Part shown: piece by piece, positions 7,537 through 61,763 of the stretch
How the letters are laid out: every line of letters begins with the position of its first letter
Position numbering within the stretch: the stretch's first letter is position 1
Position numbers and translations under genes: made by a program
The notes under the pieces: generated by a model
The model's database searches: none
What the model was told of the DNA's origin: nothing
Seen by the model: the letters and a program-made list of their open reading frames with translations, nothing else
Assembly: GCA_043821445.1 (NCBI GenBank)
Contig: JBDRCT010000049.1
Span: 3,872 to 67,871, forward strand
Reading direction: 5' to 3'
DNA from: Candidatus Omnitrophota bacterium
GTDB taxonomy: Bacteria; Omnitrophota; Omnitrophia; Omnitrophales; Aquincolibacteriaceae
DNA: 64,000 nt

Positions 7537-7548
7537 GTCAATTTTGAC
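7537..7548. promoter_or_regulatory. perfect 12-bp palindrome GTCAATTTTGAC between rex and HupE-like gene (candidate operator)
   Basis: seen directly; function unassigned. Confidence 0.2.
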
Positions 7549-7571
7549 AGGGCAAGTAGGGGGAATAGAAA

Positions 7572-8225: not shown

Positions 8226-8242
8226 AAAAGAAACAGAAGTAT

Positions 8243-35222: not shown

Positions 35223-38200
35223 GTGAACCACTCTCGGTTATTTAAAACGCTCATTGCGCTTTTCACCGTTGTCACGTTTTCAACGACAAGCGTGATCTGG
35301 GCTCCGGACAGTTTTGCCGTGGCACAAGCGATCCGTGTTCCGGCTCCTGTTGCTCCCGAAGTTCCCATCCCTTATCAGGCCAAGCTTGATCCCGGCATTC
35401 AATTTTCAATCCCTCAGGAACTTGGGACGCTTCAATATTTCAAGGCCGGCAAAGGCCCGATGGTCGTTCATCTCCAGACCGCGCACGGTCATTATCAAGC
35501 ACAGCAACGGATCAGGGCGCTTCTGCATCATTTGGACAAACAGTATGGTATCAAAACACTCCTCGTAGAAGGCAGCGCGTTCAAGCTCGATCCCTCGATC
35601 CTGAATTTCTTTCCGAAAGATCCCAAGCTCACGCAAAAGGTCAATGACGCGCTCACGAAGCAAGCGCTTGTGAAAGGGCCGGAGCTTTATTTATTGGATG
35701 AGTTAAACGGTAAAACGAGTCCTGCGCCGCAAGCATTCGGCATCGAAAACCTTGAAGCGTACCGCGAAAACGGCCTGTCGTTCATCGATGTCCTGAAAGA
35801 AAAAAAGAAAACGGAGAAATTCCTCGCCTCCATGAACGAAGGGATCGAGCGTCTTTCCGCGGCGTACCTCAATGACGCGCTGAGGAATTATCTGAAGCAG
35901 CTTGAAGGTTTTGAAAAGAACCAGCTCCCGCTTGATGCGTGGCTATCCCTTCTGAAAAAAGAAGCGCTGAAGCGGCTGAAGCTCGATCTGACACAGCCGG
36001 GTTCCCAGCTCGACTGGCCGATGCTCGTTCGCGTTTTTAAGGTGCAGGAGCTTTCTTCAAAATTCGATAAAGATGCGTTCATGAAGGAGCGGACGGAATT
36101 TCTTAAAGTTCTGAAGCGCTTTCTTCCATCATCCTATGCTCAGATCGAGCAACTGCTCGAATCGGAACAGGCCAGCCGGCAATTACCTGCTCCCGAAACA
36201 GGCCTGCTTTTCGAGAACATGGTCAAGGCCCTGCCGCGCGATTTCAATTACGAGGCCTACCCGGACGTTTGTTATTTCGTTGGGCGTCTGCTTCTTCAAA
36301 GCGAATTGAAAGCACCGGAATTGATGCAAGAGGCCGAGAAGCTTTCCTCGAAAGTCGCGGACAAACTTGCCAAGACGCAGGCCGAAAAAAATCTCGTGGC
36401 ACTTCTGAAAGATTACCGGCTGTTGCAGAAGTTGTTCGCGCTAGAGCTCACTCCCGCTGATTATGATCAAATTCTTGGAGCGCGGAAGGCGGATGGTGGA
36501 GGACGATTGAAGCCTTCCAATCTTGTTAAGCAATTGAACGGCGCCATCCTCCATCCTTCATCCGGTATCCAAAGAGTTAAAGACGTTAAATTTACCCACA
36601 TCGCCGAACTTAATCAGTTATTCGACGCGGCCATGAAATTTTACGCCGGAGTGAAAGAGCGCGACGGTTTGATGGAGCAGATGATCGAAAAACGCCTCCG
36701 AGAGACCGGCGCCGGCAAAGTAGCGGTCATTACCGGCGGTTTCCACTCCGAACCATTCAAAAATTATTTTTCGTCGAAGGATTATTCGTACGCTCTTATC
36801 TCGCCGCGGATCACGGAAAGCGATGAAATAGGACATCAGGCGTATGTGGAGAATATGCTGAACTTTGCGCAACATTTACAGCGCAACGCGTCCGCCACAA
36901 TGCGTCGGTCGGATCCGTCCTCCGGCGGACAACGCGCAACGCGCAACGTAAGCAATTCTGCGTTGAGCGCGAGCGAGGCGACAAGAGAACTCGAATTCCT
37001 TTCTGACCCGCAAGTCTTGGTAGGTGATTACGGCATCAACGCCGCCGCCGTGCGCATCGAAGTCCGCAAGATCGTCTCCACCGTCGCCGGAAGGACGGCG
37101 CTGTTACAGACTATAGACCGCAGCCTACAGCCTACAGCAAAAGCTTTGGGTCCTCAGTCCCCGGATTCTGTTCTTCCGTCTGAAAAATCCCGCTCCGAGG
37201 CGAGAGCTGAGAAAAAGCCCGTAACGATTTCACGGAGGTTAATTGTTCTGTGGGGGACCGCAGCGGCAGTGGGCGGTCTATTGGCTATGGCATGCAGGTC
37301 GATTGCTGCACCGAGCGAAGTCAAGCTGGCTGTCAGCATTTCGTCTGCTCCAAACCTCACCCCGGCCGATCTTACCGGGTTTCCCGAAGCACCCAATCTT
37401 TTTACAACGATCTTTAACCCGGGCAGAGCCACGGTGCAGATCCTGGGGGATGATCAGGGACGAGGCATGCACTTTGCTTTTAATACGGGAACCGATGGTT
37501 ATGTGGGTGCAGGACTCGAGTTTTTTTTACCGGGAGTTAAAGATTCGGCAAATTTAAGTTCCTTGAATGAATTGCGTTTTGAGCTTCACGGGAATGTTCC
37601 GGGTGGCAAGGTCAAAATGGATGTCATCGATGCCGATGGCAAGAAGGTTACTGTTTACTTAACCGGTATTTCCACAACGGAAGGAAGAATCTGGCAAATT
37701 CCGGTATCGATCCTTCAGGGCGTTAATATGGTCCGGATCCGCGACATTAATTTTGTGGCGGAAGGACCTCAGAACTTTAGCGGAGAACTCCACGTTAAGT
37801 ACAATAAACCCTCCGCAAGCCGTTCGGAAATGCGCGGGGAGGAACGATTCACGAAAGAACAAATCCAGTCAGCGCTGAAGGATTTTCAACCAACGTGGCT
37901 CGATTATGCGTTTGTCGAGACCGGCGCAAAGCGCAGGATTGACGCCGCCAACTTTCTCGGGGAAACCAAAGACCCTCGCGTTGCTGACGCGTTGATCAAT
38001 GTTTTGAAAAGTGATAAGCATCCCGGTGTTCGAGTCGCGGTCGCCAAAGCTCTCGGCAAAATTACAGATCCCCGTGTTTTTCCGGCACTGAGAGATGTTT
38101 TTGGGAAAGAAAAAAATGACGATGTGTGGTTCACGATCGCGGGAGTCCTTTGGGAGGCAGAAGACCCGTGGATCCACACACGGATGGCCGCTGCTCTCGC

Positions 38201-41200
38201 GGATCATTCCCCCTTTGTCCGGAAAATGGCCGTCCAGTTTTTTGGGGCGAATCATGTAGCCAGTGCCATTTCCATGTTGCGGAATGCTTTAAATGATGAT
38301 TCCGAAGATGTAAGAACAGCTGCCGCGGCGGCTCTCGAATGGATCACGACCACATCGCTAGCAGAGATTTCCCGCTCGGAAATGCGAGAGGTGACAAAAC
38401 CATTGGCCGAGGCGGTTGCCGGGAGGATCCGTTATGCCGCAGCTTTGGGGAAGCCCGGTTCCGGGAAGGGAACCTTACTACAGCGATTTGTTGCGGAACT
38501 GAACCGTCATCTTGACAAAAACCATCCGTACGTGATCTTAAGCACCGGAGATGTTTTTCGGGCGATCGCGGAAAAAGTTGCCGCGAAGAAAGAAGGAAGA
38601 GTCCCGGACCTCCAAAAGGTAGGGATCTTTGAGAGCTTTACCGTCCCGGATTCCGTCATCAGCGCGATGCAGGAAGGGAAAATCATCTCAGATGAGATCA
38701 CGATCGATCTCGTCAATGAAGTTTTACGGCTGGATTTCTTCAAAAAAGCCCGCGGTATTTTCTTTGACGGTTTTCCGCGGTCCGCCGGGCAATTGGCGGC
38801 ATTAGAGCAAGGCAAGATAGGGATCGGGGATAAGCCGCTGGTCATGGATTTTAATTTTATTTTGGACATCGAAGATCAAACCGTGTACAAGCGCGCCGCC
38901 AGCCGTGTTGCCGAAGAAAAACTTGCCGCTGTTCGCGAAAAAAGAGAACCCAAGATCCGCAAGGATGACCTTCCTGAAAGGGTGAAGACGCGGATCGAGG
39001 ATTATGAGTCGGTCACGAGCCCGGCGGTCGAAACGAAGCGCGGTCAACCCGATACCCTCACAATCAATGCCAACGTGAAGCCGATCGACGGCGTTTATGA
39101 AGATTTCCTCCAAGGACTTGACGCGTGGATCGCAATGCACCCCCCTCGCTCGGAAGCGCGGTTCACAGCTGGGGAAGAGGGGATCGTCCGTCGGGCAATG
39201 AAAGATTTGGAGATGGGTTGGTTTGATTCTTTTTTTGAACGCGAGATCGCGACGCCGCGGCGCGTGGCCGCCGTTCAAAGCCTTGATGCGATCAGAGCAT
39301 CTCTGAGGGTTTCCATATTAAGGGATCTTTTGGCGAAAGAGAAAAATGGCGATGTATGGTACGCGATGGCATCCGCTCTTTGGCAAGCAGGGGACCCGTG
39401 GATCCGCCAGCGGACGGTCGCCGCTCTCGGGGAGGACTCCTCCTCTATACGCCAAATGGCCGCCCAACTTCTTGGGGAGAATCATGAAACAAGCGCTTTT
39501 TCCGCGTTGACGGCGGCCTTGAATGATCCTGATGAAAGTGTGCGGGAAGCCGCCTCGGAGGCTCTCGAATGGATCATGACCACATCGCCGGTACTGGCGG
39601 CCCGCTCAGAAGTGAGGGCGAAACTTCAGTCGCCTTTTTTTACATTATCCGGCGAACGAAAGATTGGTGAATCGATCCGCATGGAGAGGATGTGGCCTGA
39701 GATTCATGAAATGAAGATCTTGATCTCACTCCATCGGGGGAAAAACGGGAAATTGCTATTAGATCTATGGACACATACTCCGGTAATTGCCGGGAAGATC
39801 CACACGGATGCGGTCAATTGGGAACTGGACGGTCCCGAGGAGGAGATCCTCGCGGTTTTTCAACGTCTCCGGGAACCCGCGGTACAGCAGCCGTTGCGTG
39901 AAGCCATTGAGCGAGATCTAGAACCAGGTGATTTTTATTCAGAAAATGAAAGGTTTGAAACGAAGCTTACTCCGTGGGTCGAGAAGCTTTTAAATGGGGA
40001 GATCGTTTCCGTCGTTACGGGGCAATCAGATCTCAGTCAGCAGCCTCCAGCAGAAGCTGCCGCGAGAGTTTTAGCCGAAAGCCGCTCCGAGATGAGGCTG
40101 ATGCCGCTGCTGGCGCTTGCGGACGGGAGTGGGCTTGCCGGCGTGATCAGCCAACTGCGTCAAGCCTGGCACGAAAACGCTCTTGTGATCGTTGCGGTCG
40201 GCCTGGGTCTTTGTGAAATAGGTTATTGGGCCTATAGAACGTGGCAGTTAAGGAAAAAGCTTAGCCACTTTCCCAATGCCGTGAAAAGAGTGAAGGATGC
40301 GGTTAGGAGGTTTGCTGAAAAGACAGAAGAGGACGAACGGCGTTCGTCTGCGAATGATCTCGAATCCATTTATGTCGACGGATTTTTGACGCGTATTCTA
40401 TGGCGCAATATTCCGGATTCAAAACTTTTACAGATCGAACAAGAAATCAAAGAAGGTCGGGATCCGGTCCTTCAATTAGTGCCTGACGGGAATGAAGTTC
40501 TAATGGAATGGACGAGACAAGTTCTTGAACTCCGCTCTTCGGCCTATTTTCCGAGTGGCGGCGAGGATCAATACGTCTCATCAGAACCCCAGGGATGGTA
40601 CGGGTCGATTGAAGTCACCGCCGGCGAGCAGTCCCGCTCGGAAGCAAGAGGAACGCCGAAAGGAGGCGATTGGGAAGCCGCGGCGCGGGCCAGGGTATCA
40701 GAAATACAACGAAAAGAGCAAGAGGAGGAGGCCCGGGCGTTGGCTAAGATGGAAGGAGAGCGAGAGGCGATTCGGAGCATGACAACGCCACAGCTTCTTG
40801 CGCTGAAGGAAAGAGAAGTCATGGCGTTCAGCGCGGCACAGATCCAGGCGTTGACGCCTGCGCAGCTTCGTGTGCTGGAAGGGACAGATCAGGAGAAGTG
40901 GCTGAATGCCCGAGCTAATGAATTGCTGGCACAGCAAGCAAAGATTATGAAAAAGTCCCGCTCGGAAGTGAGGGTTTTTGGAAATGATAGGTTCATACCG
41001 CTCATGCGGGCAACGGTACTGTCACTCGCGATAGCAGGCCTCTCGGGATGCGCTCCAGTAATTGCAGGAATTAAAACTATGCCTTTACCTCAAGGCGAGG
41101 AATTGGGTATTCCGTCGCCCCTAACCATTGAAGAATTTCAGGAAGCAATAAACAATATGTTTGATCCCGATTCACCCACTCCACCGGATCTCAGTCTGGC

Positions 41201-44200
41201 GACGTTCCGGGAATGGCAGCGGGATGCTAAATACATGGAGGCTTTTACCCGAAAATACTTGCGCGCATTGGGGTATCAGATTCGTAGTGAAGACTGGCTT
41301 CGTGGCTTTGCCATTTGGTATGCCGCGCCAGATCACGGCGATCGTCCCTATTGGGAATATCAGGAAGAGATTTACGAGAGATTAGGGGAGTGGGAAGCAA
41401 ATGGCTATATTATAAGATTCTCCGTCCCGATTTTTCCGTTTGGCCGCTCTGAAGTGAGAAATACGTCAGTCCAGGCTGAGCAGCCCAAACATCCCATGTT
41501 TATCACCTTAGAAGTAAATAAAGACCTGCAAGGTTTGGATTTCGGCGATGTTGAAAAAGCAATCGCGAGCGGGAAAATGGCTATTGCTGAAGTTTCGGTT
41601 GATTGGGCAAGGAAAATCAAAGAAACGTATCCCAATGATGTCTACACTATTTTTATAACTCCTTTAAGCGAAAATCAAATCAGAGAAAGAATGCAAGAAA
41701 CGGGACAAACGCGGGATGCCGTTATTTTCGAGGAGATGAGCAGGCGACAAAAAGAACGTGCGCTAGAAAAACCTACCCCTGAAGAGAAACAACTCTCACG
41801 CGCCAAAGGAGCTGTTATCGAAATGGCGAGGCAGAATGAATATAATGCCGTTATTGTCAGTAATGAACTAAAAGATTTAGAAAGAGACGATGTCCGATGG
41901 GCCGGCGATGAAGGAGCTGCAGTGGTTGAGCAGTTTATGGCTGCTGTTGATGCTGCCCGAAAGGCGGGAAAAAAATTAATTCTATATTCGGGTCCTTCCG
42001 CTACCGGAAAATCCCCCTTGTGGAACCAAATACAAAAAAAACACGGCGATCAATTTTCACGCATTGTTCTTTATACAACGCGTGGCCTTCGCCCAGGTGA
42101 AAAAGATGGAGTCGATTTTCATTTCCGTTCCGTTAATGATCTTCAAAATCTGATGAATGAAAAAAATGGTCGATCCGAGGCGCGAGCGTCAGAAGAAACT
42201 CCTGCTGACAGGTTGATCAGTGGTCGCAAATTTACCGTTATCGATGTTGCGGAAAATCCCTATGCTATTAAAGTGATCAGTGATCCCGACTACAAGAGCC
42301 TGATCCTGTATGGGTTCTCGAATGCGGCTCGTGCTCTGGGAGACCTGGTCGTGCCTTTTTTTATCACGAATAAGTTGTCTGTTACCATTGACGGTATTTC
42401 GCAAGATAGTACCGTGATATTACAAAAAAAAGTGATGCCAGCTAGTGATCAATTCCAAACTTATCTGGAAAACAATGACCTGCCAAAAGCGATCGAACTT
42501 CTAAAAAAAATGGTTGAGATCGATCAAGAGATCATGCGCAGGGGATACATCCTCACCGATTTTAAAGTGGAAAACTTTGGCATTACAGCGGATGGTAATG
42601 TGCTTTTGCTCGACCCTACGGGGGTGGTTGATGGGCTTGGTCGCACGCAACCGCCGGAAGATTTCTACCATTATTACAATCAAAACAATTTCTTGTTTGT
42701 AAAAAGTGGAAGTTATCATCGCTTCTATGATGATTACAAGAACAACAAACATGCGAAAGAACTGTTCCAAGCTTTTCGCGATCTCACAGGTGTTGACTTT
42801 ACAGGAATATTACAAACAACAAAAATGAATGTGATGATTGCCTTGGCTCTCTCGGAATCTTTTGACCCCGATAATCCATTTAGCAAGCATGTTCAGCACG
42901 CGAGGCACTACCTGGAAGGGTTGACGCCCTTTGCCGCATTGTCCCAGCAACTTAAAGAGCCGGTTGCTATGCCTGCCATCCAAGTTGAAGCGGAAAGTTC
43001 TTTGCGGGGGTTTTTAGGCCATGAACAAAGGCGGGAATTTAATTTACAAGACTTGTCCATTTGGAACGAAGAAAAAGCGATCAATATTCATGTCCCTTTA
43101 CAGGAAACTAAACTTGTAACTATCGAATCCCGCTCTGAAGTGAGGGACACTCAGACCACTCCGAGCCGTTCTGCCGCGAGACAGACAGCTCAGATCGGCA
43201 GGACGTGGAAGGATTTATTCAAAGAAAATTTCAATTGGGGTATTGAAGAGGGCCTGATCACGGCGGGGTTCAGCATCGGACTCTACGCCGGACTTTTTGG
43301 CCTACCGTTTTTAATGCCATTAGGACTCAATCCCGCCCATACGGCGCTCATCGGTACCTTGCTTGGGGGCGCTCTTTATCCTGCTGTTGTCGCTGTCCGT
43401 GCAAAGTGGTTGCAAGCTGCAAAGACGGAAGATGCGGGGGGATTTGATGTAAAGACATTCGTTGATACGCTTTTAGAAGCCTCCCGGGAAGCGCGAAGCC
43501 TTTTTGATTCGGAGCAATTGGATCTTGCAAATAATATTGAGAGCATTGTATTCCCGAGAATAAGGGCGAGGAAGCTTACGTACGCCCAGCGTGCTGCTGC
43601 GAAAGCGGAGTTGAATGGCAGGTTGCAACGGGTGAAAGAAGAGATCGCTCAGATGGAGACGAGCGGAAATTTATCGGGTAATTCCCAATCTGTATTAAAT
43701 GCCCGTTTGAGGGAGATCGAGAATTCATCGAGTGATTTCGAGGCCGCATTAACTTTCCGCTCGGAAATAAGGCAGATCCTTGAGGCATTGAGAAAAGAAA
43801 AACACGTTGCGGGTGTTATAAGCACGTTTATTTTTGGGTTGGCCGGGTTTCTTTTTGGAATTTATCAGGGGATATCATTTTTTTCAAGATCAAATATCAG
43901 GCCGTATAGTACGGATGACGTATTTTGGATGGCTATTTTTGTGCTATTGGGGGGAGAATTATTAGGCGTCGCCGGTGGGATTATTGGCCTCGCCGTTTAT
44001 GGCGTTGTTTATGCCGGATTTTCTATCGTTCGTCTCGTTGTGCACGCTTTTTGGAGCGTGGCGGGTTCGGTGAGACGTAGTGGATATAGAGCGGGAAGGG
44101 GACTTGCGGGGGAAGAACGTACGACAGGTCATGCTCCGAAACGCTCGGAAGTGAAGGTTACGGAGAGGGAATTCCAGAGGGCATTGAAGGACCTGGAGAC

Positions 44201-47200
44201 CGATTGGTTTGACACGTTCTTCATTAAGAACGCAACGCAACGGCGCGTGGGCGCTATCAAAGTCCTCGGTGAGAGCAAAGATCCGCGCGCGGTTCCAGCA
44301 TTGACCGGGTTATTAAAGGATGCCGCGGTCCGTTCGTCCGCCGCTGAAACGCTCACTTCTATTAGATCCAGCGTTCCCGCGTTGCAGGCCGAAGCCGGGT
44401 TTACAACGGAGGAAGCGGGGATATTCCGCCGGGCAATAGAGGACCTGAAATTCCAATGGACGGATCTTTTCCTGTTTGAGAGAGAAACACGCCGGCGTGT
44501 GGGTGCCGTCAAAAGTCTTGGTGCGATCCAAAATCCGGCGCTCATTCTCGAGTTATACAGTCTTCTGGTGAAAGAGGAAAAAGAAAAATGGGTCAAGACC
44601 GATGAGTGGTTCGCGATCGCGGGAGTCCTTTTGCGAAAAGGGGAAACCCGGATCCTCGAAACAGTTTTTGATTCTCTTACGGATGATATCCCCGTTGTCC
44701 GCAAACGGGCCGCCGATTTTCTCGGGGAAAATCATGTGGTGAGCGCCGTTCCGGCGCTGACCCTTGCTTTGAAAGACAGTTTTGTGAAATTCGCTGCCGC
44801 AGCAGCGATCGAAAAGATCACGGGCACACCGCCGTTCAAGAAAAAGGGAGCCTTCGAATTTTTTGGCGTGAATCCTGTCGTGTTGCCGAGGACGACCTTT
44901 TTTGCTTCAGGGGGCTTGGGTTTTCTTTTCGAATTAAAGCTCATTTCGCCGTTCGTGAAGCCAGGGGACCCCCTTGGGAAAATCGCGGGCCTTCTTCTGT
45001 TGTCCTTGGGAAGCATCATCGGAAGCTATATCCTGATATCGATCGTTCAAAACAGGATCGTCGGCCTTGACCGTCTCGGACGGCCGCTTGTGAAAAAAGA
45101 AAAAGCGTCTGCCCGCTCGGAGGCGCGGAACTTGGCATTGAGCGTGCCGGCAGGGCTTCTCGAAAAGGCTTCCGATTGGTTGCATAGTCCGTGGGGGATC
45201 GTGGACTGGATCGTGGGGGGCGTTCTTTTTGGCATGGCAGCGGCTTTCGCGTTTGCCACCCTTTTGGTGGCCCTTTATACGATCGCTTCTATTTGGACCT
45301 CTTTCCAGAAAAGTGCCATCAGGAGTTTGGAAGAGAAGGAGGGCTTTGCCGCGATAGAGTTTCTGAGGGGCCTGTTGCAGAAAACCAGGGGATTTTCTTA
45401 TCTGATCTTTTCGGATGTTTATAACGAAACCGAACTTGCGGCTATTGCCGCCCTGACACACCTCAATGATTCCTTCTTGACCGGTTTTTTAACTTCGGGC
45501 GAAGGGTTTAACCGGTATCTCCGCGCCAGTGACGAGGTCAAAGCGGCCGTCGACCGCTGGAGTCCTGAAGCGTTCAGCGCCCAGATCCTCCGGAACTTAT
45601 CGTCGAATGATCTTTCACCGGCGCAATTGATTGAGAAAAGGGAGGATCTTGCCGGGCTCGGGATCTTGAGGCCTTTTTTGGTGGCGGCCTTCTCTCATTC
45701 CGATCCCAAGATCCAACGGATGGGGCTGGAAATTTTGGCAGGCTACGAGTTCTTCACGTTTGGCAGGGTGCCCACGGACCATGAAATATTCGATCCGGTG
45801 ATCCGGGAAGCCCTCGAGCCGTTTTTGCAAAAGGCGATCTCCCAGACTTCCGACGACGACCTTTTCGATAAGACAGCGATGATCATGATCCGGCAGGGTC
45901 GTTCCGGTGAGATCGTGCCCGGGGCGCTCCAGAGAATGTCCGCCGGGAACCCGGACCACTTTCCGCTGCTTGTCAAAGAACTTGCGACCGCGGAATATCT
46001 TGACGCGACTTTATTCCATCCCGACTTGAAGATCCGGGCACTGGGGCTAAAAGCCATCGAAGATACCGGTACGGTCGCTGCTCAAGACCAGTATGCTGAG
46101 AAATATCAGGAACAGCTCATTCCATTACTTCAGGATCCGGACAATGATGTTTGCAGCGGGGCAGCTATTTTACTGACCGTCGTGGGTCACGGAAAATCCG
46201 TGCTTCAAGCCGCGGCGTCCAGGAATTGGAACGAATTGCCGGAGCTTGTTAATTATTTTGATCTGCATTGGAAAGAAGCGGTCGAACTCGCCGGGCCCGA
46301 ATCGTTGCCTCTTTTGAAGTTATTGATCGACCGGAGGAAAGCCTGGGCATACGCGGACGACCCGATTGACGGTGTGGATGCCGCTATTCTTGGGAAGAGC
46401 CAGGCAGGATTGAAATTCGACCGGAGCCACATTATCGCTAAAAAAACAGAAGAACTCCGGGAATTGAAAGCAGCGGTGGACCGTTTGTCCGCCCGTTCTG
46501 AGGTCCGCCATTTGCGCCGGTTGGGCGCTCCGGACAGGGACATCGGCGACATCGTGGAAACCGTACGGGAGTCCCTGGACGGGGCAGTGACGGACGATGA
46601 ATCGCTTTGGGCCGCGCAGCAGCGGATGGGGGATTTGCCGGACCTGCTGAAAGGGCCCAGGACCGAACGGGAACTTGGGATCGAGATCGGTGAGTCCTGG
46701 AAAATACCGAATGTTCATTATCAATCCCGCCGTTCCGAAGCCCGTTCCGAAATCAGGGAACGTCTCGCACCGGTTTTCAGGGCTTTTGGGATTGATGAAT
46801 CGAGCGGAAAAACGGAAATTGAAAAAACGAAAAACCAGGCGGACCGATGGTATGTCGAAGGAATGACGCGGCAGCATGTGCATCCCAGAGGTACCGGAAC
46901 TGACGGCGCGGACGATAAGGACGGCCCCTATGCGCCGCTCCACATAAGAAATGAGAAAGGCTCGCTTAGCGAAGTTTCTCACACTGGAAATGCCGTGGTC
47001 ACGGCGATGATGGAGGACCAGGAGTTGCAATCGGTCGGGGTCTATCAACGTGCTTTTCTTGATCATCATCCCCGGGAGCGGGAGTATCTTGAGGCCGCTG
47101 CCAAGACAAATCTCATCTGGAATACGCTCGACGGCGGTATCGGCGAGAGTTTGATGCGTGAGGCGTGGCTTTTGAACAAGGGGCTTCGATCGCGTTTGAA

Positions 47201-50200
47201 GGATATTTTATCTGCGGGTGATAAGGCGGATCCGATCTATCAGGAGGCGTTGGCCGCTCTCAAGGACGCCGAAGAAAGCGGCAAGACGAGGGATATCCTT
47301 GCGGCACTCAGGAAGATCGAGAAGTTGGGCGGTTTTGACCCGCTCCAGATCAAGATGGGAGCGAAAGGAACAGACCTGGGACGCATAGAACAGATCCGTG
47401 ATCATGAGCTCTTCGTCGGAGATGCGGAGGCCCGGTTGCTTTTCATGATAGATCTCGGGCGGAGCGGACAATTCGATAGGGTCGCGTTCCAGCCTCTTGT
47501 GAATGATCCATCGAAGGCCTCTTATATCACATTACTGAAGAAGCCCTGCCTCTGGGACCTTGTTGAGGGACGCCCCCAGCCCAGATCCTATTGGACGGCG
47601 CTCTTGGACGCCGGGGTCAAGGTCATGACAATGGTCGAACAGAAAGAGCTTCCGAAATTTGAGATCGCATTGGGCGAGATCGTTGGATTTCCAACGGCCG
47701 ATGCGAAGGATGCTCGTAAGAGGCAGCCGGGCGGTCATGGGCAGTTAGGGGTCTATTTTGTGGTGGATTTTACGGAAAATGCCCCGGCGAAAGACGGGCG
47801 GCACCATATCCGCTTTTTCGGGAACGGGGACAACCGAAAGGGAAATCCGGAGGCGATCGTGGCCGGGTTCGCGATCGTTGAAAGATTGCCGATCATAAAG
47901 ATCACGACCGCCGCCACCGCGATCGATAAAAAAGGCGGCAAGGAAGTGGTCCGCATCATTCAAAAGCTGGTCCGGGGAGTCAAAAAAATCTTTAATGTTC
48001 TTGATCAATGGGAAGAAATCGATGCCATCAATGCGGGCCAGGAAAAGATCTTTTACGCTGCGGGACAGCGGCACGGTTTTGGCCAGGAAGGCAGGCAGCT
48101 TTTCAATACGAATCTGTTCTATTTTAATATCGATATGCTCCACTCGATCCTGGTCGAGATGCGCCGGATCACGGGAGATGGTGAATTTTTGGACGGGATC
48201 ATGCCCTTCTTATTCGACAAGAGCGCCAAGGCGCAGGAAATTGACGGCAAAAAATACGTTTCGATGGATTCGGCGATCGGGTATGTGGTTCATAAGCTGA
48301 ACACCTTTTACACGACGGATCCCCGCTTTGAATCTCTGAGACAAGAGTACGGTCCCCAGCTTCTCTACTATATAAACTATGGCCGTGATATTTTTGCGCC
48401 CAAGAAAAAAGCAGAGGACCAGTATCTACAAGAAGGAACGGACTATTACGGCCCATTCGATGAAACCATCAAGAATTTCCGCGACGCGGTACCGGGGCTT
48501 ACACCTCCCGGATTCAGTCTTACGGATCCTTTTGAAAAGGACGGAAGTGCCGTGGACAAGAATGGAAATCCTATTGATTCCAAGTTCTGGACCGAAGCCC
48601 AGCATTGGCTGGATTCCTTGGGACTTTCGCGCGTTCGACGAATGACCTCACTGAAGGTGGAGGGCCGCGTGACGCTTCGAAATGCGGAATATATCGGCGA
48701 CGTGGAGATCATCAACCGGTATGGTCGCAAAGACAAATCGAATCGGGCCCAGAGAGTTGTTTTAAGCAGCGGCCAGTACCTTGAGCAGCTCAAAGCGCGC
48801 GGTTTTTGGGCCGATGATCACTTGGTGCTCGAGGATCTCCGCATCACGATCGACGAAGATGGCCGGTTGCTTACGATGGCGATTTCAATGGCCCATACTC
48901 CGGAAGGCGCTTTGAGGATCCGTGATACAGAAGAGGCCATAAAGCTATTTGATGAGTTAGGGGCCCGGGGAGCCAATGTTCGTGTCGGACGCGGTTTCAC
49001 GGTCGAAAGAGGCGGAGAACTCATCATTGATCCCAGGGATTTCGGTCCAGGTGTGGATTTCTTCGTCGAGTCCAACGTGGTGATCGCCAGTGGCGTTACG
49101 ATCAACCTGCAGCTTGACGGGAAAAATCACGTGATAATCGATAGCGGAACTGTTTTTTCCGGTCCGTCCGGGCTCAGACTTGATCTGGTGCTTCAAGAAG
49201 GCGAGTGGCTCCACATTGGTAAGGGTGCTTTACAGGATGTGATCGCCGGGCTAGCGTCGGAAGAAACCCCGAGAGGGAAAACGATGACGCTCTTTCTTCA
49301 TTACCGAGAGCTTGTTAAAGCGGATGAGCTCGAAAGGGCGTTTTCTATCCGTAAGATCATAAACTCATTGGTATCCTACCCTGTGGGGGATGCCGGGATA
49401 TTCCGGAACGCTCAATGGGTAAAGAATCTGATCGACGAATTTGAGAGGACGCCTGGCCACCACTCCCGTTCTGAAGTACGGGGAGCGCTGGGGTGGTTCG
49501 AGAACGGGAGAGTACTGACCTATGAAAGAATGATCGCGGAAAGAAAAAAGGAGATCGATAAGCTCCGGCGGAGCATTACGGATGCCAAAACGCCTGAAGC
49601 GAGACGGCTGGTCCCCGGCTACGAAGCCAGGGTTCGTGACGCCCAGGGAGCTATTACCGGTTATCAGAGGCAATTATTTGCCGCCGCGATTCCCGAACCA
49701 GAAATTCTGGCGCGACTTTTGGCCGTCGTCCCGCCGCAAACACTCTACGATATCTATCAGGCTGCCAGGGCGGTTCTGCCGTTCGATGGGGCCATTCAGC
49801 CGCGGGATATGCTTCGCTTTTTCTATGGGGTGCCGTCTCAGGGTCAGGGCCCGACGATGCAGAACTATGTTTCAGCGATCGGAAATTTTCTCATGGAAAG
49901 ACAGGAAGCGCTGGTGCCTGCTTCGGCCGACGCAAGATCTTTGGAGATGCCGCAAATCCCGCGTGAACCCTTTATTCGTTTCTATCCATTACAACTCGTG
50001 GCTCTGATACAAATGGCTCGTGGGTTCTCACGCGAAACGCTCCTTGAGATGCTCCGCGTTCAAACCGTTCCTGCGGCGGAGCAAGAAAGTTCTCAGGTAG
50101 GGACCGTGAACGGCGCAAAAACAGAGCTCTTTGCTCGTCCGGCGAATGACCAAGTACTGTTTCTCGCTGTTTTTCTCAAGAACTTATTGGCTGCGGTTGA

Positions 50201-52784: not shown

Positions 52785-53768
52785 ATGTCAACACGAGTTC
52801 TAAGCGGTACACGGCCCACGGGAAAACTGCATCTCGGGCACCTCCTGGGAACTCTCGAGAACTACAAGAAATTGCAAGGCCAGGATGCTTTCTTCATGAT
52901 CGCGGACCTGCATGCCCTGACCACGGAATATGAAGACAAGACCCGGATCGCGGAGGACGTGACAGAAGTTTTGATCGATTATTTGGCAAGCGGTCTCGAT
53001 CCGGCGCAGTGCACGATGTTCGTTCAAAGCGAAGTGCTGGAGCACGCCAATCTTGCGCTGCTTTTTTCGATGATCACACCGCTGGGCTGGCTGGAACGGA
53101 ACCCGACCTACAAGGACCAGCTTGCGGAACTGAAGGGCAAGGAGCTTCACACGCACGGTTTTTTGGGATATCCGGTGCTTCAGGCCGCGGACATCGCGCT
53201 TTATAAGGCCGAAAAGGTCCCGGTGGGTGAGGATCAGCTGCCGCATCTGGAACTCACCCGCGAGATCATCCGCCGGTTCTTTCATCTTTACAAGAAACAG
53301 GTCTTTCCGGAACCGGAGGCTGTGCTCACGCATGCGCCGAAAGTACCGGGGCTCGACGGCCGGAAGATGAGCAAAAGTTACGGCAACTGTATTTATCTCG
53401 CGGATTCCAAAGAAGAGGTCATCAAAAAAGTGAAGACGATGGTGACCGATCCGGCGCGGAAATTGCGGACCGATAAAGGACATCCGGAAGTTTGCCCGGT
53501 CTTTTTCTATCACAAGCTTTTTAATCAAGATCATGTGGAAACAGTCGCGCGGGAATGCCGGGACGCGGCGCGCGGCTGCGTGGATTGCAAAATGGAAATG
53601 GCCGGAAAACTGAACGGATTTATGGACCCGATACGGGAAAGACGTGAATCATGGATGAAGAAAAAAACGGAAATACGACAGATCCTCGACCGGGGAGCCA
53701 AGAGGGCGCGGGAAGTGGCGAGCCAAACCCTCAAGGAAACCCTGCAGGCGATGGGCCTGGTGTCGTAG
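52785..53768 (+). CDS. trpS: tryptophanyl-tRNA synthetase
   Basis: 'TGKLHLGHLLG' HIGH and 'KMSKS' motifs. Confidence 0.9.
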   Translation: MSTRVLSGTRPTGKLHLGHLLGTLENYKKLQGQDAFFMIADLHALTTEYEDKTRIAEDVTEVLIDYLASGLDPAQCTMFVQSEVLEHANLALLFSMITPLGWLERNPTYKDQLAELKGKELHTHGFLGYPVLQAADIALYKAEKVPVGEDQLPHLELTREIIRRFFHLYKKQVFPEPEAVLTHAPKVPGLDGRKMSKSYGNCIYLADSKEEVIKKVKTMVTDPARKLRTDKGHPEVCPVFFYHKLFNQDHVETVARECRDAARGCVDCKMEMAGKLNGFMDPIRERRESWMKKKTEIRQILDRGAKRAREVASQTLKETLQAMGLVS

Positions 53769-53809
53769 CTTCTCCCGCGACGCCTCTGGCAGAACTCTCC
53801 GGACTCCCG

Positions 53810-54556
53810 ATGATTCCGAAAGAGTCTGATCCTCTCCACGTCAAGATCGCTGTCTATGACGGGCCGCTGGACCTTCTCTTAGACCTTATCCGGAAAAACG
53901 AGATGAACATCTATGACATTCCGGTCGCGGAGATCACGCAGCAGTATCTGGATTATTTGAAGGTGATGAAGCAGTTGGATCTCGAGGTCGCAGGCGAATT
54001 CATCGTGATGGCCGCAACCCTCATCTATATCAAGTCCAAGATGCTGCTCCCCACGGACAAGGATGAGGAGGAAGGCGAAGGCGAAGATCCCCGCGCGGAG
54101 CTCGTGCGCAAACTTCTCGAGTATCAGGCCTTCAAAGAAGCGGCCAAGGAGCTCGGGCTTCTTCAGACCGAACGCGGCAAGGCGTTCACGCGCCAGATCA
54201 CGGATTATTATTTGGGAGAGTTGGATCCCGAAGACGCGGGGGTCGATACTTTTAGTGCCAATTTTTTTGACCTGATCGTCGCGTTCCAGAATGTCCTCTC
54301 GAAAAAAGAACCCAAAAAAGAGCACGAGGTTTTCGAAGAAGTTGTCTCGATCGAGGAAAAGATGATCCAGATCCAGTCCTACCTTGACGAGAAAAAAAAG
54401 GTCTCTTTCAACGATCTTTTTTCGGAGCGCTGGACGCGCAACGAGCTCATTGCCACGTTCCTTGCGGTCCTCGAGCTCGTCAGGACCCGTTTTGCCTGGG
54501 TGCGGCAGGACAAGCAATTCGGCGAGATCGTCATTGAAAAACGGGAAGAGAATTAG
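53810..54556 (+). CDS. scpA: segregation and condensation protein A
   Basis: 'YDGPLDLLLDLIRKNEMNIYDIPVAEITQQYLDYL' ScpA N-terminus. Confidence 0.8.
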   Translation: MIPKESDPLHVKIAVYDGPLDLLLDLIRKNEMNIYDIPVAEITQQYLDYLKVMKQLDLEVAGEFIVMAATLIYIKSKMLLPTDKDEEEGEGEDPRAELVRKLLEYQAFKEAAKELGLLQTERGKAFTRQITDYYLGELDPEDAGVDTFSANFFDLIVAFQNVLSKKEPKKEHEVFEEVVSIEEKMIQIQSYLDEKKKVSFNDLFSERWTRNELIATFLAVLELVRTRFAWVRQDKQFGEIVIEKREEN

Positions 54557-54567
54557 TATAACAACTG

Positions 54568-54640
54568 CCCAAGTGTCAAAGTATCAACGTATCAAAGCGT
54601 CAAAATGCTTTGATGCCTTGACACTCTGGAACTTTGACAC
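54568..54640. promoter_or_regulatory. shared intergenic motif block (AGTGTCAAAGTATCAA, palindrome ATCAAAGC-N8-GCTTTGAT, CCTTGACACTCTGGA, TTGACA x2)
   Basis: same 15-16-mers recur (one inverted) at 56641-56700. Confidence 0.35.
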
Positions 54641-54690
54641 AGATGAATGGATCACACATTTTGTTTTCTTAACGGGAGCTATTATAAATC

Positions 54691-55554
54691 ATGAAACCCA
54701 CTGCGGCACAAGAACGGGAAAAGCAAGCCAGACTCAAGACTTTGCGCAAGGAACTGGATCAGGAGATCCAGGAACAGCTCGAGGAGAAGAATGCCCTCGA
54801 GGATTTGACCGGGGCCCAAAGATTCCAGATCGAATCGTTACGCGAAGAGGACCTCCATGATCCGAAAAAGGCCAGGCAGGTGGTGGAAGCGCTGATCTTC
54901 GCGTCTTCAAAGCCCCTGACACCCGCCGAGATCCGCAAGGTCACGAAAGTCTTGACCGTGGGTCAGATCGAGACGATCGTGGCGGAGCTGAAAGAAGATT
55001 ATCAAAGGAGTGAACGTTGTTTTGAGCTTTTGGAGATCGCGGGCGGGTATGAACTTTCGACCCGGAGGGAATTCGCGCCGTGGATCCTGAAGATCGAGTT
55101 GCAGCGCAAAGCGCGCCAGGCGACACAGTCGGCGCTTGAGACGCTGGCGATCCTGGCTTACAAGCAGCCGCTTACGCGTGCCGAGATCGAAGCCTTGCGG
55201 GGGGTGGACACGAGCGGTGTGTTGAATACGCTTATGGAAAAGAATTTCATCAGGATCACGGGCAAAAAAGAAGTTCCCGGAAGGCCGTTCATGTATGGGA
55301 CCACCGAAAAGTTCCTGGAGCATTTCGGTCTCAAGGAGTTGAGGGACCTTCCGAGCATTGATGAGATCCGCCAGATGGTGGATAGCTCGGTCAAAAAAGA
55401 AGAATTGATCGGAACGAAGAAGATCGTAGACGTGCCGCAAAGCGACACGCCACAGGACGGAACAACACCAGCTTCCGGAATTCCGGAGGACCTGTCCGAG
55501 GACAGGCAAGCAACGGGAGAGGCGACACCCCATGAGAGCGAGGGAAAAATTTAA
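54691..55554 (+). CDS. scpB: segregation and condensation protein B
   Basis: tandem winged-helix ScpB sequence 'EALIFASSKPLTPAEI...LEIAGGYELSTRREFAPWI'. Confidence 0.8.
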   Translation: MKPTAAQEREKQARLKTLRKELDQEIQEQLEEKNALEDLTGAQRFQIESLREEDLHDPKKARQVVEALIFASSKPLTPAEIRKVTKVLTVGQIETIVAELKEDYQRSERCFELLEIAGGYELSTRREFAPWILKIELQRKARQATQSALETLAILAYKQPLTRAEIEALRGVDTSGVLNTLMEKNFIRITGKKEVPGRPFMYGTTEKFLEHFGLKELRDLPSIDEIRQMVDSSVKKEELIGTKKIVDVPQSDTPQDGTTPASGIPEDLSEDRQATGEATPHESEGKI

Positions 55555-55555
55555 C

Positions 55556-56635
55556 ATGGACCTGAGCCAGCTACGCAAGAAGATCGACGAATTGGACAAG
55601 AAGATCATCGGGCTTTTGAACGAGCGGACCGAATTTGCGCGCGAAGTCGGCAAAAAAAAGACCGAGGCCGGCAAGGAGATCTACGCCCCGGAACGGGAAA
55701 GCGAGATCTACCGGAAGATCGACGGCCTGGCGGGGAAAGGGGTCCTGCCGAAGGACGCCCTGAAATCCATTTACCGGGAGATCATGTCGGCGGCGCTCGC
55801 GCTGGAAAAACCGCTCGTGATCGCCTACCTCGGGCCCGAGGCGACCTTTACGCATCTCGCGTCACTTTCCAAATTCGGTTCAAGCGTGGAATACCGTTCC
55901 TGCGTGAGTATCGGCGAGGTCTTCCGGGAGGTCGAACAGGGCCGCGCCGATTACGGCGTGATCCCGATCGAAAATTCCATCGAAGGGGCCGTGAGCCACA
56001 CGCTGGATATGTTCATTGATTCGGACCTGAAGATCTGCTCCGAGATCTATTTTGAGATCGCGCACAACCTGATGTCGAATATTCAAAATATGAAGCAGAT
56101 CAAACGCGTGTATTCCAAGGCCGAGGTATTTGGCCAGTGCCGCATGTGGCTGGAGTCACATCTGCACCACGCCGAGCTCATGGAAGCTTCGAGCACGGCT
56201 GCGGCGGCCAAGCGCGCGGCGGACGAGGATGGCGCGGCGGCGATCGGTTCAAAGCTTGCGGCGACGCTCTACAATCTGCCGATCCTGGCGGCCGAGATCC
56301 AGGATTTTTCGAACAATGTGACGCGCTTTCTCGTGATCTCTAAGCAGATCCCGGGCCGGACCAAGAGCGACAAGACCTCCATCCTTGTCTCGATCCGTGA
56401 CAAGGTGGGGGCGCTTTATGAGATGCTTTTGCCGATCAAGAAATACCGGGTGAACATGACCAAGATCGAATCGCGCCCGTCCAAGAAGAAGGCATGGGAT
56501 TATTATTTCTACATCGATCTCGAGGGACATGTGGAAGATCCCAAGGTCCGGAAGATGCTTGCGGAGATGGAAAAAAAGGTCAAGTTCCTCAAAGTGCTTG
56601 GCTCCTATCCCGCTGCGGGAAACACGAAAGACTAA
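55556..56635 (+). CDS. pheA: bifunctional chorismate mutase / prephenate dehydratase
   Basis: N-terminal AroQ CM helix 'LRKKIDELDKKIIGLLNERTEFAREVGKKK', PDT domain 'AYLGPEATFTH', C-terminal ACT. Confidence 0.85.
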   Translation: MDLSQLRKKIDELDKKIIGLLNERTEFAREVGKKKTEAGKEIYAPERESEIYRKIDGLAGKGVLPKDALKSIYREIMSAALALEKPLVIAYLGPEATFTHLASLSKFGSSVEYRSCVSIGEVFREVEQGRADYGVIPIENSIEGAVSHTLDMFIDSDLKICSEIYFEIAHNLMSNIQNMKQIKRVYSKAEVFGQCRMWLESHLHHAELMEASSTAAAAKRAADEDGAAAIGSKLAATLYNLPILAAEIQDFSNNVTRFLVISKQIPGRTKSDKTSILVSIRDKVGALYEMLLPIKKYRVNMTKIESRPSKKKAWDYYFYIDLEGHVEDPKVRKMLAEMEKKVKFLKVLGSYPAAGNTKD

Positions 56636-56640
56636 AAAAC

Positions 56641-56700
56641 AGTGTCAAGGTTTCAGAGTGTCAAGGTATCAAAGTAGGCAGTTCCGATACTCTGACACAA
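56641..56700. promoter_or_regulatory. shared intergenic motif block (AGTGTCAAGGT x2, GTATCAAAGT, TTCAGAGTGTCAAGG = revcomp of CCTTGACACTCTGAA)
   Basis: paralogous to 54568-54640. Confidence 0.35.
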
Positions 56701-56705
56701 ACAAA

Positions 56706-57891
56706 TATGATCCCATTTAAAAAACACATCCAGGATATCAGGCCCTACGAACCCGGGAAGCCGATCAAGGAGCTTCAGCGGGAGTACGGGATCCGGAGCG
56801 TCATCAAGCTCGCCTCGAACGAAAACCCTCTCGGGCCATCCGGGAAGGCGATCAGCGCGATGCGCAGGGCGATCCGGGAAGTACACCTCTATCCGGAAGG
56901 GAGCTGTTATTATCTCCTGGCCCGTTTGTCCCAAGAGCTGGATCTCGACCCGGCGAACCTCATTTTCGGGAATGGCTCTAACGAAATCATCGAGCTTTTG
57001 GCACGCGGTTTTTTGTCCGAAGGCGACGAGATCATTTCTTCGGAAATGACCTTTCTGGTCTATCCGATCCTTTCTCAGGTCTGCGGTGCGAAGTTCAAGG
57101 CCGTTCCCATGAAGAACTACCGGTATGATCTCGAAGGGATCCTCCGGGCGATCACACCGAAGACCAAGCTTATTTTTATCGCGAATCCCAACAATCCGAC
57201 CGGTACTTACGTGACCGCGGGAGAGGTCGAGGATTTTCTTTCCAAGGTTCCCCCGAGCGTGGTCGTGTGTTTCGACGAGGCATACGTGGATTTCGTGGAG
57301 GCGGAAGATTTTCCGAAGATGCTCGCGTACATTAAGGGCGGCCGCCCTGAGAATACGGGCGAGCCTCGCCCTGCTTTTCCGCCGAAGGACGGATCTGTCC
57401 ACAGTATTTTGGCGGAGCAGGCGGGGCGGCCGAATGTGGTGGTCCTGAGGACGTTTTCCAAGGCGTATGGTCTGGCCGGTCTCCGCATCGGCTATGGCGC
57501 GGCCTCCAAGGAAATGGTGGATTATCTCCACAAGGTCCGCCAGCCGTTCAATGTGAATTCGGTCGCGCAGGCCGCGGTCGTGGCGGCGCTCGACGATTCG
57601 TTCTTTCTCTGGCGCACAAAATGGCTCGTGGTCCGGGGACGGAAATATTTCTACCGTAAGCTTAAGAAATTAGGGCTAGAATACCTGCCCAGCCAGGCGA
57701 ACTTCATCCTTGTCCATATGAAGACCGACGGCCAGGAAGTTTATCAGTACTTGCTGCGTCAGGGGATGATCGTCCGGCCGATGACCGCCTACAAACTGCC
57801 GGACTGGATACGTATCACAATCGGTCGGCGCAGCCAAAATGCACAGTTGATCCGGTTGTTGAAAGCGTATTTGAACAAGAAAACCGCTTGA
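56706..57891 (+). CDS. hisC: histidinol-phosphate / aromatic aminotransferase (class II PLP)
   Basis: 'IKLASNENPLGPS' and 'RTFSKAYGLAGLRIGY' motifs; ~40-aa insertion before the PLP-lysine region. Confidence 0.8.
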
Positions 57892-57958
57892 ACAGCACAA
57901 CGCTCAACGCACAACGCGCAACGTGATAACCATTCGTTGACCGTTGCGCGTTGCGCCC
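57892..57958. repeat. REP-like palindromic element copy B
   Basis: ACAGCACAACGCTCAACGCACAACGCGCAACGTGATAACCATTCGTTGACCGTTGCGCGTTGCGC. Confidence 0.55.
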
Positions 57959-58012
57959 TCAGCATAGCCTAATGAAGGCATAAGAGATAGCGATCGGAAG
58001 GGGATAAAAAGC

Positions 58013-59029: not shown

Positions 59030-59031
59030 AA

Positions 59032-59092
59032 ACAGCGCAACGGGCAACGCACAACGCGCAACGTTAGAACTTCTCGTTGAGCATTGCACGTA
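59032..59092. repeat. REP-like palindromic element copy C
   Basis: CAGCGCAACGGGCAACGCACAACGCGCAACGTTAGAACTTCTCGTTGAGCATTGCACG. Confidence 0.55.
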
Positions 59093-59119
59093 GAACCTGT
59101 AGTAAAGGTGATAAACTTT

Positions 59120-59953: not shown

Positions 59954-60025
59954 CGCAACGCACAACGCGCAAAGCGCAACGTAAAAGCTTTTTCACTGTG
60001 CGTTGACCGTTGCGCATTGAGCGTA
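59952..60025. repeat. REP-like palindromic element copy D
   Basis: AGCGCAACGCACAACGCGCAAAGCGCAACGTAAAAGC...CTGTGCGTTGACCGTTGCGCATTGAGCG. Confidence 0.55.
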
Positions 60026-60186
60026 AAAAAGACCCTTCCCAAATCCGGAAGATATGCTATACTCCACGCGTTCGCATTGATTTCGGTTCCGGCCCTGCGC
60101 CAGGGATCGAGAGGGAAAAACGGTGCGGACCCCCATTTTCATGCGATCCCAATGAGAAGGGGACTCTCAAGGAGGTTTTCCCTATT

Positions 60187-61749: not shown

Positions 61750-61763
61750 ATTAAAATCGATCA

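Follow-up and report, generated by a model that had tools for sequence, protein, structure and literature searches.

Giant multi-enzyme proteins of the phylum Omnitrophota ('Archaeovorins', or the 'multi-enzyme metabolic cluster' class) have already been described; they combine HEAT repeats and numerous transmembrane helices with metabolic domains, glycolytic ones among them, and they are suspected to be cleaved (bioRxiv 10.1101/2023.11.21.568195; bioRxiv 10.64898/2026.06.07.730766; Seymour et al. 2023, PMC10066038). In the 2023 study the points of cleavage were unknown, which blocked piecewise structure prediction. The open reading frames (ORFs) of these giants are among the largest genes known, and their products may act either in one piece or after being cut. 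Here we analyze a stretch of 64,000 nucleotides (nt) from Candidatus Omnitrophota bacterium (assembly GCA_043821445.1, contig JBDRCT010000049.1, positions 3,872 to 67,871), further referred to as the window. It harbors an ORF of 5,802 amino acids (aa) in which an adenylate kinase (ADK) is embedded. This ADK is a self-contained cassette of a modular giant protein, and we suggest that the protein might be processed in the manner of a polyprotein. Among the explanations considered this picture as a whole is the best one, and we give it a probability of about 0.45.

The window protein shares with the published giants the phylum, the interleaving of HEAT repeats with cytoplasm-type enzymes, many hydrophobic segments, the signal-like N-terminus and poor sequence conservation. 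It differs in size, because with its 5.8 kaa it stays below the published members (at least 10-147 kaa) and below the published size of at least 10,000 or at least 30,000 aa. It further differs in that neither C39-peptidase, subtilisin nor SecA-like domains were detected anywhere in the giant ORF by Pfam or NCBIfam, the two collections used for all domain scans of this protein, and in that it can be assigned to a distinct family whose members share modules at the N- and C-terminal ends. The papers cited above mention neither the junction motif described below, nor polyproteins, motif-bound shuffling, permuted enzymes or ADK cassettes, and a literature search on processing of Omnitrophota polyproteins found no paper. 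The presence of an ADK in a giant protein adds to what is known of multi-enzyme giants, while the design of this family (end modules, pentapeptide, shuffling and permuted enzymes) is new as far as we checked the literature. The junction motif as a candidate processing site appears to be unreported.

The giant protein starts with a signal-like N-terminus and a conserved N-terminal module (N-module), continues with variable cassettes such as HEAT repeats, the ADK, a permuted guanylate kinase, membrane or lipoprotein-like units and uncharacterised modules, and ends with a conserved C-terminal module (C-module). It is divided into about 21 cassettes of 79-912 aa by a pentapeptide, R-S-E-[A/V/M/I/L]-[R/K], present in 21 copies where 0.23 are expected from composition. 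The codons for R, S and E differ among these copies, and the constraint thus acts at the level of peptide, not of DNA. A six-frame scan of the window found one further copy outside any ORF frame and none other in an ORF frame. Profile search of GTDB genomes with the N-module yielded 58 loci, with more than one copy in several genomes. They were read with 10-kb flanks, and most of their ORFs run off the flank at more than 3,900 aa. The junction motif is common to all 58 loci; in most of these family ORFs R-[S/A]-E-x-R is several-fold enriched, and the family-wide consensus of the junction reads R-[S/A]-E-[V/A/L/M/I]-R. Its density is 2.14 per 1000 aa in family ORFs versus 0.28 in the remaining ORFs at these loci, where the copies lie mostly within broken continuations or adjacent giant genes. 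In a logo of 328 copies (median spacing 183 aa) only the five positions carry information, and the flanks are not conserved. Five family members contain 16 Pfam domains in total; the motif interrupts none of them, as against 9.4 expected at random (P<0.0005), and most of them are tightly bracketed by it. That the architecture consists of motif-delimited cassettes is, in our opinion, nearly certain.

Several simple roles of the motif were considered and rejected. The varying codons rule out a DNA-level repeat or recombination site. Internal translation starts are ruled out by the fourth position, which is often Ala or Ile (GCN, ATA/ATC/ATT) and thus no start codon. Phosphorylation of the serine is unlikely, since Ala takes its place in 18% of the 328 copies, and on inspection R-x-E-x-R with unconserved flanks fits neither a furin-like nor a twin-arginine signal. 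A degenerate copy, RIEVR (37053-37067, aa 611-615), falls within a helix predicted where the N-module ends; the corresponding site of homologues reads RAEVR, RSEVR or RSEIR.

The ADK fills the stretch of about 258 aa located exactly between RSEMR (38373) and RSEAR (39147), and it is a complete adenylate-kinase-type nucleoside monophosphate (NMP) kinase. A first-pass annotation of the bare sequence had proposed a full-length ADK-like domain, and its P-loop, NMP-binding, DGFPR and LID motifs are indeed all present, in order and in frame. The same annotation placed the kinase, as something unexpected, in an exported scaffold; what we find instead is a string of about 21 cassettes, among which the ADK is one mobile, recurring type. 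The Pfam model PF00406 matches with 69.2 bits (gathering score 26.8, E 5.6e-19), far beyond chance. NCBIfam adk models align full length, the best being TIGR01351 with 88.3 bits over model positions 5-210 of 212. The score of a hidden Markov model, proposed earlier as a check, therefore gives a divided answer: the Pfam threshold is passed (69.2 versus 26.8), whereas the NCBIfam equivalog cut-offs are missed (88 versus 168 for TIGR01351). Because the alignment is full length and the score still lies below the curated cut-offs, we regard the cassette as a divergent ADK.

Other comparisons lead to the same family. All 83 matches listed in a PDB sequence search are ADKs, with 2rgx of Aquifex aeolicus as the best. 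The AlphaFold2 (AF2) model of the cassette has pLDDT 91.7 and pTM 0.87 and shows the three-domain fold of CORE, NMP-binding and LID parts. Its best 50 Foldseek matches in PDB are ADK or UMP/CMP kinases; E goes down to 2.5e-11, and the TM-score normalised by target reaches 0.82. When aligned with free-standing ADKs (A2, 28 sequences), the window ADK keeps all invariant and nearly invariant columns, namely the P-loop Lys, STGD…R, DGFPR…Q, R-x-D-D, two core Arg and the post-LID Arg; R174, R178, R196, D198, D199 and R207 of the alignment are among them. The earlier suggestion to compare catalytic Arg and Lys residues with bona fide ADKs thus has a clear result, as every catalytic Lys, Arg and Asp is retained. 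Compared with free-standing enzymes (A. aeolicus 2RGX, E. coli 1AKE), the cassette has the same fold, P-loop, STGDxxR, DGFPR...Q and LID Arg/Asp. It differs in being only 26-34% identical, in an extra N-terminal helix, in an insertion of about 20 aa in the NMP domain, in a short LID without zinc-binding cysteines and in its location inside the 5,802-aa ORF.

We predict that the cassette is a catalytically active NMP kinase, and we consider this likely. Its orthologue in the locus L001 is 87% identical with a ratio of nonsynonymous to synonymous substitution rates (dN/dS) of 0.15, which makes it the most constrained of five modules compared. Such strong purifying selection together with retained catalytic residues shows that it is not a decayed pseudo-enzyme. 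A fold kept merely to bind a nucleotide or a partner is imaginable, since related embedded ADKs have lost key residues (P0152, P0163 and P0140), the NCBIfam cut-offs are missed and the extra helix and the insertion are present. As the window cassette itself keeps every catalytic and invariant residue at dN/dS 0.15, we hold such a co-opted binding domain for very improbable.

Search for relatives shows that the ADK is not alone. A word-indexed search of 5.8 billion proteins returned only ordinary ADKs of about 30% identity. Exhaustive search placed the nearest relatives inside very long proteins, and 20 of the 32 hits at E <= 1e-10 are longer than 1,000 aa. Among them are P0131 (4,680 aa, 54% identity), P0132 (3,279 aa), P0133 (1,972 aa) and P0134 (5,515 aa, two copies); hits with 4-8 ADK stretches were left aside in the detailed comparison. 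From the equivalent of R36 to DGFPR, nearly all embedded ADKs span 60-81 aa, as opposed to 46-52 aa in six free-standing ones. ADKs resident in giant proteins are a distinct clade. All catalytic residues are kept in the window, L001, P0131-P0133 and P0137, and key residues are lost in some other members (DNFPH in P0152, AGAPR in P0163, GKNE in P0140). In L056, a second ADK cassette, of divergent sequence, is flanked by motifs on both sides. No second ADK is encoded elsewhere in the window.

The junctions of these relatives are instructive. In P0131, whose N-module is homologous, a stricter or looser motif definition gives 11-15 junction copies, and the ADK starts right after one of them. Other giants have different repeated peptides: [GV]ARL[AS] occurs 15 times in P0163 (4,226 aa, with homologous N-module; GARL expected 0.27), and D-x-A-M-[LTVI] nine times in P0137 (3,239 aa; DAAM expected 0.03). 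In both, the ADK cassette begins 10-30 aa after such a peptide. P0132, P0143 and P0152 possess the N-module and no obvious repeated peptide. A short, invariant and flank-independent peptide that differs by lineage is to be expected if the site is recognized in trans by a factor that co-evolves with it. It is conceivable, if somewhat doubtful, that the junction peptides (R-S-E-Φ-R, G-A-R-L-A, D-x-A-M-Φ) are lineage-specific processing sites and that giant ORFs of Omnitrophota encode true bacterial polyproteins. In that case each translation product would be split, probably in the cytoplasm, to yield dozens of ordinary proteins, and the junctions would be the places where cassettes are shuffled and even circularly permuted.

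Cassettes move as units. L001, on the metagenome-assembled genome contig JAZDFE010000015, is a close orthologue and the only locus that shares upstream genes with the window, and the homologous blocks of the two proteins are bounded by motifs. The ADK cassette of L001 is placed between blocks M07 and M08, which are adjacent in the window, and cassette M06 has moved as well; the junction upstream of ADK reads SNPEEREVT there and SRSEMREVT in the window. The full-length enzymes found in other family members comprise the cytoplasm-type hexokinase, glutamate dehydrogenase (GDH), phosphoglucose isomerase (PGI, 758 bits) and cofactor-independent phosphoglycerate mutase (iPGM), and also a domain of 6-phosphogluconolactonase/GlcN6P-isomerase type, a 2-hydroxyacid dehydrogenase, a receiver domain and ADK.

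One cassette of the window is a guanylate kinase (GMK) with circularly permuted order: residues ~73-149 come first, the P-loop part (residues ~5-60) comes last, and the new termini coincide exactly with two junction motifs. The same permuted GMK is present in L017 (aa 2140-2363), where both flanking motifs are decayed (RSGVR, PSEIA). Another permuted enzyme is iPGM in L001 (nt 6468-8474, aa 797-1465), with residues 215-509 followed by 3-202 and with ends at motifs. Two permuted enzymes among about ten recognisable ones are unusual; they might, for example, have arisen by tandem duplication in which the junctions were relocated. Most remaining cassettes of the giant protein have no family match.

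We propose that a separate factor reads the pentapeptide, and proteolytic processing is the most plausible purpose of such a site. The flanks are unconserved, which speaks for recognition by a trans-acting factor (a reader) and not by a surrounding self-processing fold. As at least ten hydrophobic segments, found by hydropathy scans, put the motif copies of an intact chain on both sides of the membrane, and all copies are together only during synthesis, we expect the reader in the cytoplasm as its most likely place. The giant ORF would then act in the manner of a polyprotein. Cassettes with signal- or lipoprotein-like starts would be exported individually, and those that lack them, such as ADK and GMK, would stay soluble or membrane-proximal cytoplasmic enzymes. 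In the cytoplasm, ADK might catalyze ATP + AMP <-> 2 ADP and keep the nucleotide balance for other nucleotide-using cassettes and for the cell. We put the motif forward as a candidate cleavage site, and we do so tentatively.

Analysis of hydrophobic segments bears directly on this proposal. Segments at aa 9-25 and 673-689 precede the ADK, and counting of crossings in an intact threaded chain puts ADK in the cytoplasm. The positive-inside rule applied to the second and third segments puts aa 690-1652, ADK included, outside. Judged by the charges at their flanks, segment 1 and segment 2 alike favor N-in orientation, which is incompatible with an intact threaded chain. Hydrophobic segments are enriched 5-50 aa after motifs (32/109 versus 16.4±4 at random), and three of four lipobox-like sites follow a motif, the numbers being small and two of the sites orthologous. 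These three features make cassettes look like separate pre-proteins and thus favor processing at the junctions. The domain was originally described as embedded in a secreted giant protein: the embedding and the signal-like N-terminus are real, while export and extracellular nucleotide interconversion are not established, and the topology cues conflict.

Should the motifs be cut in the cytoplasm, ADK would never be exported at all. The alternative is that it is exported with the giant protein and interconverts extracellular or host adenine nucleotides, be it in the periplasm, at the cell surface or inside prey. The signal-like N-terminus would suit such a function, as would the positive-inside result and a weak likeness to a beta-sandwich carbohydrate-binding domain (CBM_11, E 0.13) in the cassette that precedes the HEAT-ADK-HEAT stretch. 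Moreover, published predictions place HEAT repeats and glycolytic domains of Omnitrophota giants extracellularly, Omnitrophota are thought to be predatory or parasitic, and a secreted ADK has been reported for Pseudomonas aeruginosa. However, the crossing count from the N-terminus puts ADK inside, its cassette has no targeting sequence of its own, and it is not obvious what would supply an ATP-dependent kinase with substrate extracellularly. The authors of the extracellular predictions themselves doubt the assignment for such enzymes. We therefore consider export of the ADK unlikely, and the cytoplasmic side as its place of work only slightly better than an even chance.

A more serious competitor is an uncleaved, membrane-tethered multi-enzyme scaffold in which the pentapeptides are hinges, HEAT docking sites or sites for chaperones or targeting factors, and ADK, as an active domain, regenerates ATP/ADP locally for the cassettes next to it. 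HEAT-repeat cassettes on both sides of ADK agree with it, and so do tolerated motif decay at some junctions, the lack of a detected protease and the literature, which treats the giants as single membrane-anchored proteins. Scaffolds with NMP-kinase domains exist in eukaryotic axonemes, which also have the multi-domain AK7/8/9, and FAP42, a scaffold protein with GK domains, is among the PDB matches of the GMK cassette. Axonemal FAP42 (PDB 7n6g) is similar in that NMP-kinase domains are placed in a very large structural protein, with local nucleotide supply; it differs in being eukaryotic and cytoskeletal and in having no junction motif, and the homology is limited to the kinase fold. On the other hand, a pure linker needs neither an invariant R..E.R with unconserved flanks nor lineage-specific alternatives. 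Signal- and lipobox-like sequences right after motifs and the orientation conflict are likewise hard to explain in an intact chain. On balance the uncleaved scaffold seems to us rather improbable, if less so than export.

Polyproteins cut at short sites are known elsewhere. In MARTX toxins a cysteine protease domain (CPD) of the toxin itself separates the effector domains, gingipain/HagA polyproteins are cut after Arg or Lys, and viral polyproteins are a further case. The giant protein is likewise encoded by a long ORF of independently folding units with short recurring sites between them, and its Arg-rich site is compatible with Arg-specific cleavage. In contrast to MARTX and gingipains, no CPD, RTX or gingipain domains were detected in it, its cargo consists of housekeeping-type enzymes, not toxins, and its cleavage is a proposal.

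Several results weigh against processing of the giant protein or against our picture of the ADK in it. No protease domain was found in the giant protein and no conserved protease gene beside family members. The N- and C-modules, the only universally conserved candidates for the reader, have no significant match to a known enzyme. Decayed junctions with retained flanking cassettes (NPEER in L001, RSGVR and PSEIA in L017) indicate that the motif is not essential at every junction. The signal-like N-terminus together with published extracellular HEAT predictions fits an exported HEAT-ADK-HEAT stretch. As for the enzyme itself, every NCBIfam adk equivalog model scores below its cut-off, and since UMP/CMP kinases are among the best structural matches, comparison does not fix specificity for AMP versus other NMPs.

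The N-module defines the family. Homologues of the first 656 aa are mostly annotated as Candidatus Omnitrophica or Omnitrophota. Among the 58 loci every named record is Omnitrophota/Omnitrophica, including Ca. Taenariivivens, and the remainder is 'uncultured bacterium'; homology of the window to related records reaches 72-87%, which places it in the same phylum. The alignment of these very divergent modules (A3, 17-65% identity) keeps Q31, H34, E62, R426-D427, G451-G452-x-H454 and few other residues invariant. The AF2 model has pLDDT 71.7. Foldseek search of PDB with it gave EreC (probability 0.41-0.60), BcR135 and ChaN, all non-significant (E >= 0.24). No PDB profile or Pfam match was obtained for 11 members, and a broader profile search returned only hypothetical proteins, mostly annotated as Omnitrophota. 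The invariant His/Glu/His pattern may resemble sites of the EreA/ChaN/TraB/TIKI hydrolase superfamily, which is marked by a two-lobe alpha/beta fold with conserved His...Glu...(R-N/D)...GxxH. Complete family members end in a common C-module, which has no Pfam match. It was found by phmmer at the C-terminal ends of L018, L015, L013 and L005. Similar endings were seen by eye in P0123, P0124, P0131 and P0151, of which phmmer did not confirm P0131 and P0151. With an uninterrupted ORF of 17.4 kb, the same upstream genes and cassettes in L001 and long ORFs of the same design at 58 loci, mis-assembly or a mis-called fusion of separate genes has a negligible probability.

The pentapeptide brackets every recognisable domain, and it therefore provides concrete candidate cut points and makes the polyprotein question directly testable. 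It also offers a rational way of splitting giants for structure prediction and annotation. Several giant lineages share an ADK cassette that is intact and under strong constraint, which suggests nucleotide balancing as one of the regular tasks of the giants. If the junctions are processing sites, housekeeping enzymes such as ADK, GMK, PGI and hexokinase would be released beside separately exported signal-peptide and lipoprotein cassettes. Should stand-alone adk genes prove to be missing, polyprotein cassettes would be the form in which essential enzymes are encoded. The data suggest that giant genes work as strings of separate enzymes.

Table 1. Features of the giant ORF, in window coordinates.
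Feature	Position (nt)	Strand	Remarks
Giant ORF, 5,802 aa, GTG start, uninterrupted over ~17.4 kb	35223..52631	+	Orthologue is locus L001
N-terminus resembling a Sec signal peptide, aa 1-36, hydrophobic core 9-25, ...AVAQA	35223..35330	+	Hydropathy scans; N-terminus of homologues also hydrophobic
Conserved N-terminal module (family-defining), invariant Q, H, E, R-D, G-G-x-H	35331..37190	+	
N-module motifs HLQTAHGHY; LLVEGS; ITGGFH	35469-35495; 35559-35576; 36729-36746	+	
Junction motif RSEAR, aa 657	37191..37205	+	Hydrophobic segment aa 673-689 starts 16 aa further on
Junction motif RSEMR, aa 867	37821..37835	+	
HEAT-repeat cassette 5' of ADK	37836..38372	+	Pfam HEAT_2 76 bits, plus HEAT_PBS
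Junction motif RSEMR, aa 1051, directly 5' of ADK cassette	38373..38387	+	NPEER (decayed) in L001
ADK cassette, aa 1056-1308, N-terminal helix and complete NMP-kinase fold	38388..39146	+	
P-loop GKPGSGKGT with catalytic Lys, aa 1076-1084	38448..38474	+	
NMP-binding motif STGDVFRA, E. coli R36 equivalent	38541..38564	+	
NMP-binding-domain region with ~20-aa insertion, common to ADKs inside giant proteins	38562..38681	+	Alignment A2
DGFPRSAGQ, R88 and Q92 equivalents	38766..38792	+	
Short LID without zinc-binding cysteines: KRAASR, IRKDD, KTRIEDY	38889..39005	+	Equivalents of R119, R123, R156, D158, D159, R167
Junction motif RSEAR, aa 1309, directly 3' of ADK cassette	39147..39161	+	RSEVR in L001
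HEAT-repeat cassette 3' of ADK	39162..39602	+	Pfam HEAT_2
Junction motif RSEVR, aa 1461	39603..39617	+	
Junction motif RSEMR, aa 1621	40083..40097	+	Hydrophobic segment aa 1653-1669 downstream
Junction motif RSEAR, aa 1805	40635..40649	+	
Junction motif RSEVR, aa 1913	40959..40973	+	
Cassette with lipoprotein-precursor-like start, …LSLAIAGLSGC, lipobox 41040-41051	40974..41444	+	Likewise in L001
Junction motif RSEVR, aa 2075	41445..41459	+	
Circularly permuted GMK cassette, aa 2080-2316	41460..42170	+	Same permutation in L017
Junction motif RSEAR, aa 2317	42171..42185	+	
Junction motif RSEVR, aa 2637	43131..43145	+	
Junction motif RSEIR, aa 2846	43758..43772	+	
Junction motif variant RSEVK, aa 2974	44142..44156	+	
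Junction motif RSEAR, aa 3298	45114..45128	+	
Junction motif RSEVR, aa 3758	46494..46508	+	
Double junction motif RSEARSEIR, aa 3837-3845, back to back, precedes 903-aa cassette	46731..46757	+	
Junction motif RSEVR, aa 4749	49467..49481	+	
Junction motif RSEVR, aa 5037	50331..50345	+	
Junction motif RSEIR, aa 5195	50805..50819	+	
Junction motif RSELR, aa 5484	51672..51686	+	
Conserved C-terminal module, also C-terminal in other family members	51687..52628	+	phmmer

Some further cassettes deserve mention. The lipoprotein-signal-like start that directly follows a motif (40974-41051, aa 1918-1943) reads VFGNDRFIPLMRATVLSLAIAGLSGC, with lipobox LSGC; similar starts exist in L001 (…LLLAIAGLPGC) and, on a different cassette, in L016. 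Cassettes M09-M10 (41445-43130), which comprise GMK and a kinase-like unit, have GC content of 0.43-0.44 versus 0.52 for the whole gene, and this would fit their more recent acquisition from a source of lower GC. The kinase-like unit (42186-43130, aa 2322-2636) matches the FAM69/PIP49 protein-kinase-like family weakly, with E 0.004, below the cut-off. The largest cassette, of 903 aa (46758-49466, aa 3846-4748; 912 aa if counted from aa 3837), has strong orthologues in L005 and L003 and no Pfam or PDB match. Motifs noticed by eye in it (…NTLDGGIGESL… and …QPGGHGQLG…) are reminiscent of nucleotidyltransferases of UDP-glucose pyrophosphorylase type, for which it is a candidate only.

Two minus-strand ORFs over the ADK region (38507-38869 and 38802-39278) have no family match and lie inside a long ORF with homologues; we treat them as shadow ORFs. 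The giant gene has a third-position GC content (GC3) of 0.56, versus 0.65-0.76 in its housekeeping neighbors, and a TrpRS gene adjoins it in the window. The conserved housekeeping block 3' of the giant gene (52785-63014, with scpB, pheA, an aminotransferase and further genes) immediately precedes another family member in five related genomes, at L010, L011, L012, L015 and L017 (nt 1-10000). Either the family gene was inserted at different sides of the block, or a further paralogue lies beyond the 3' end of the window. Finally, long motif-rich ORFs on the plus strand end just 5' of the family gene in L023 (nt 2-9670, four copies) and L046 (nt 3-9500, eight copies), which indicates that giant genes of this type can stand in tandem.

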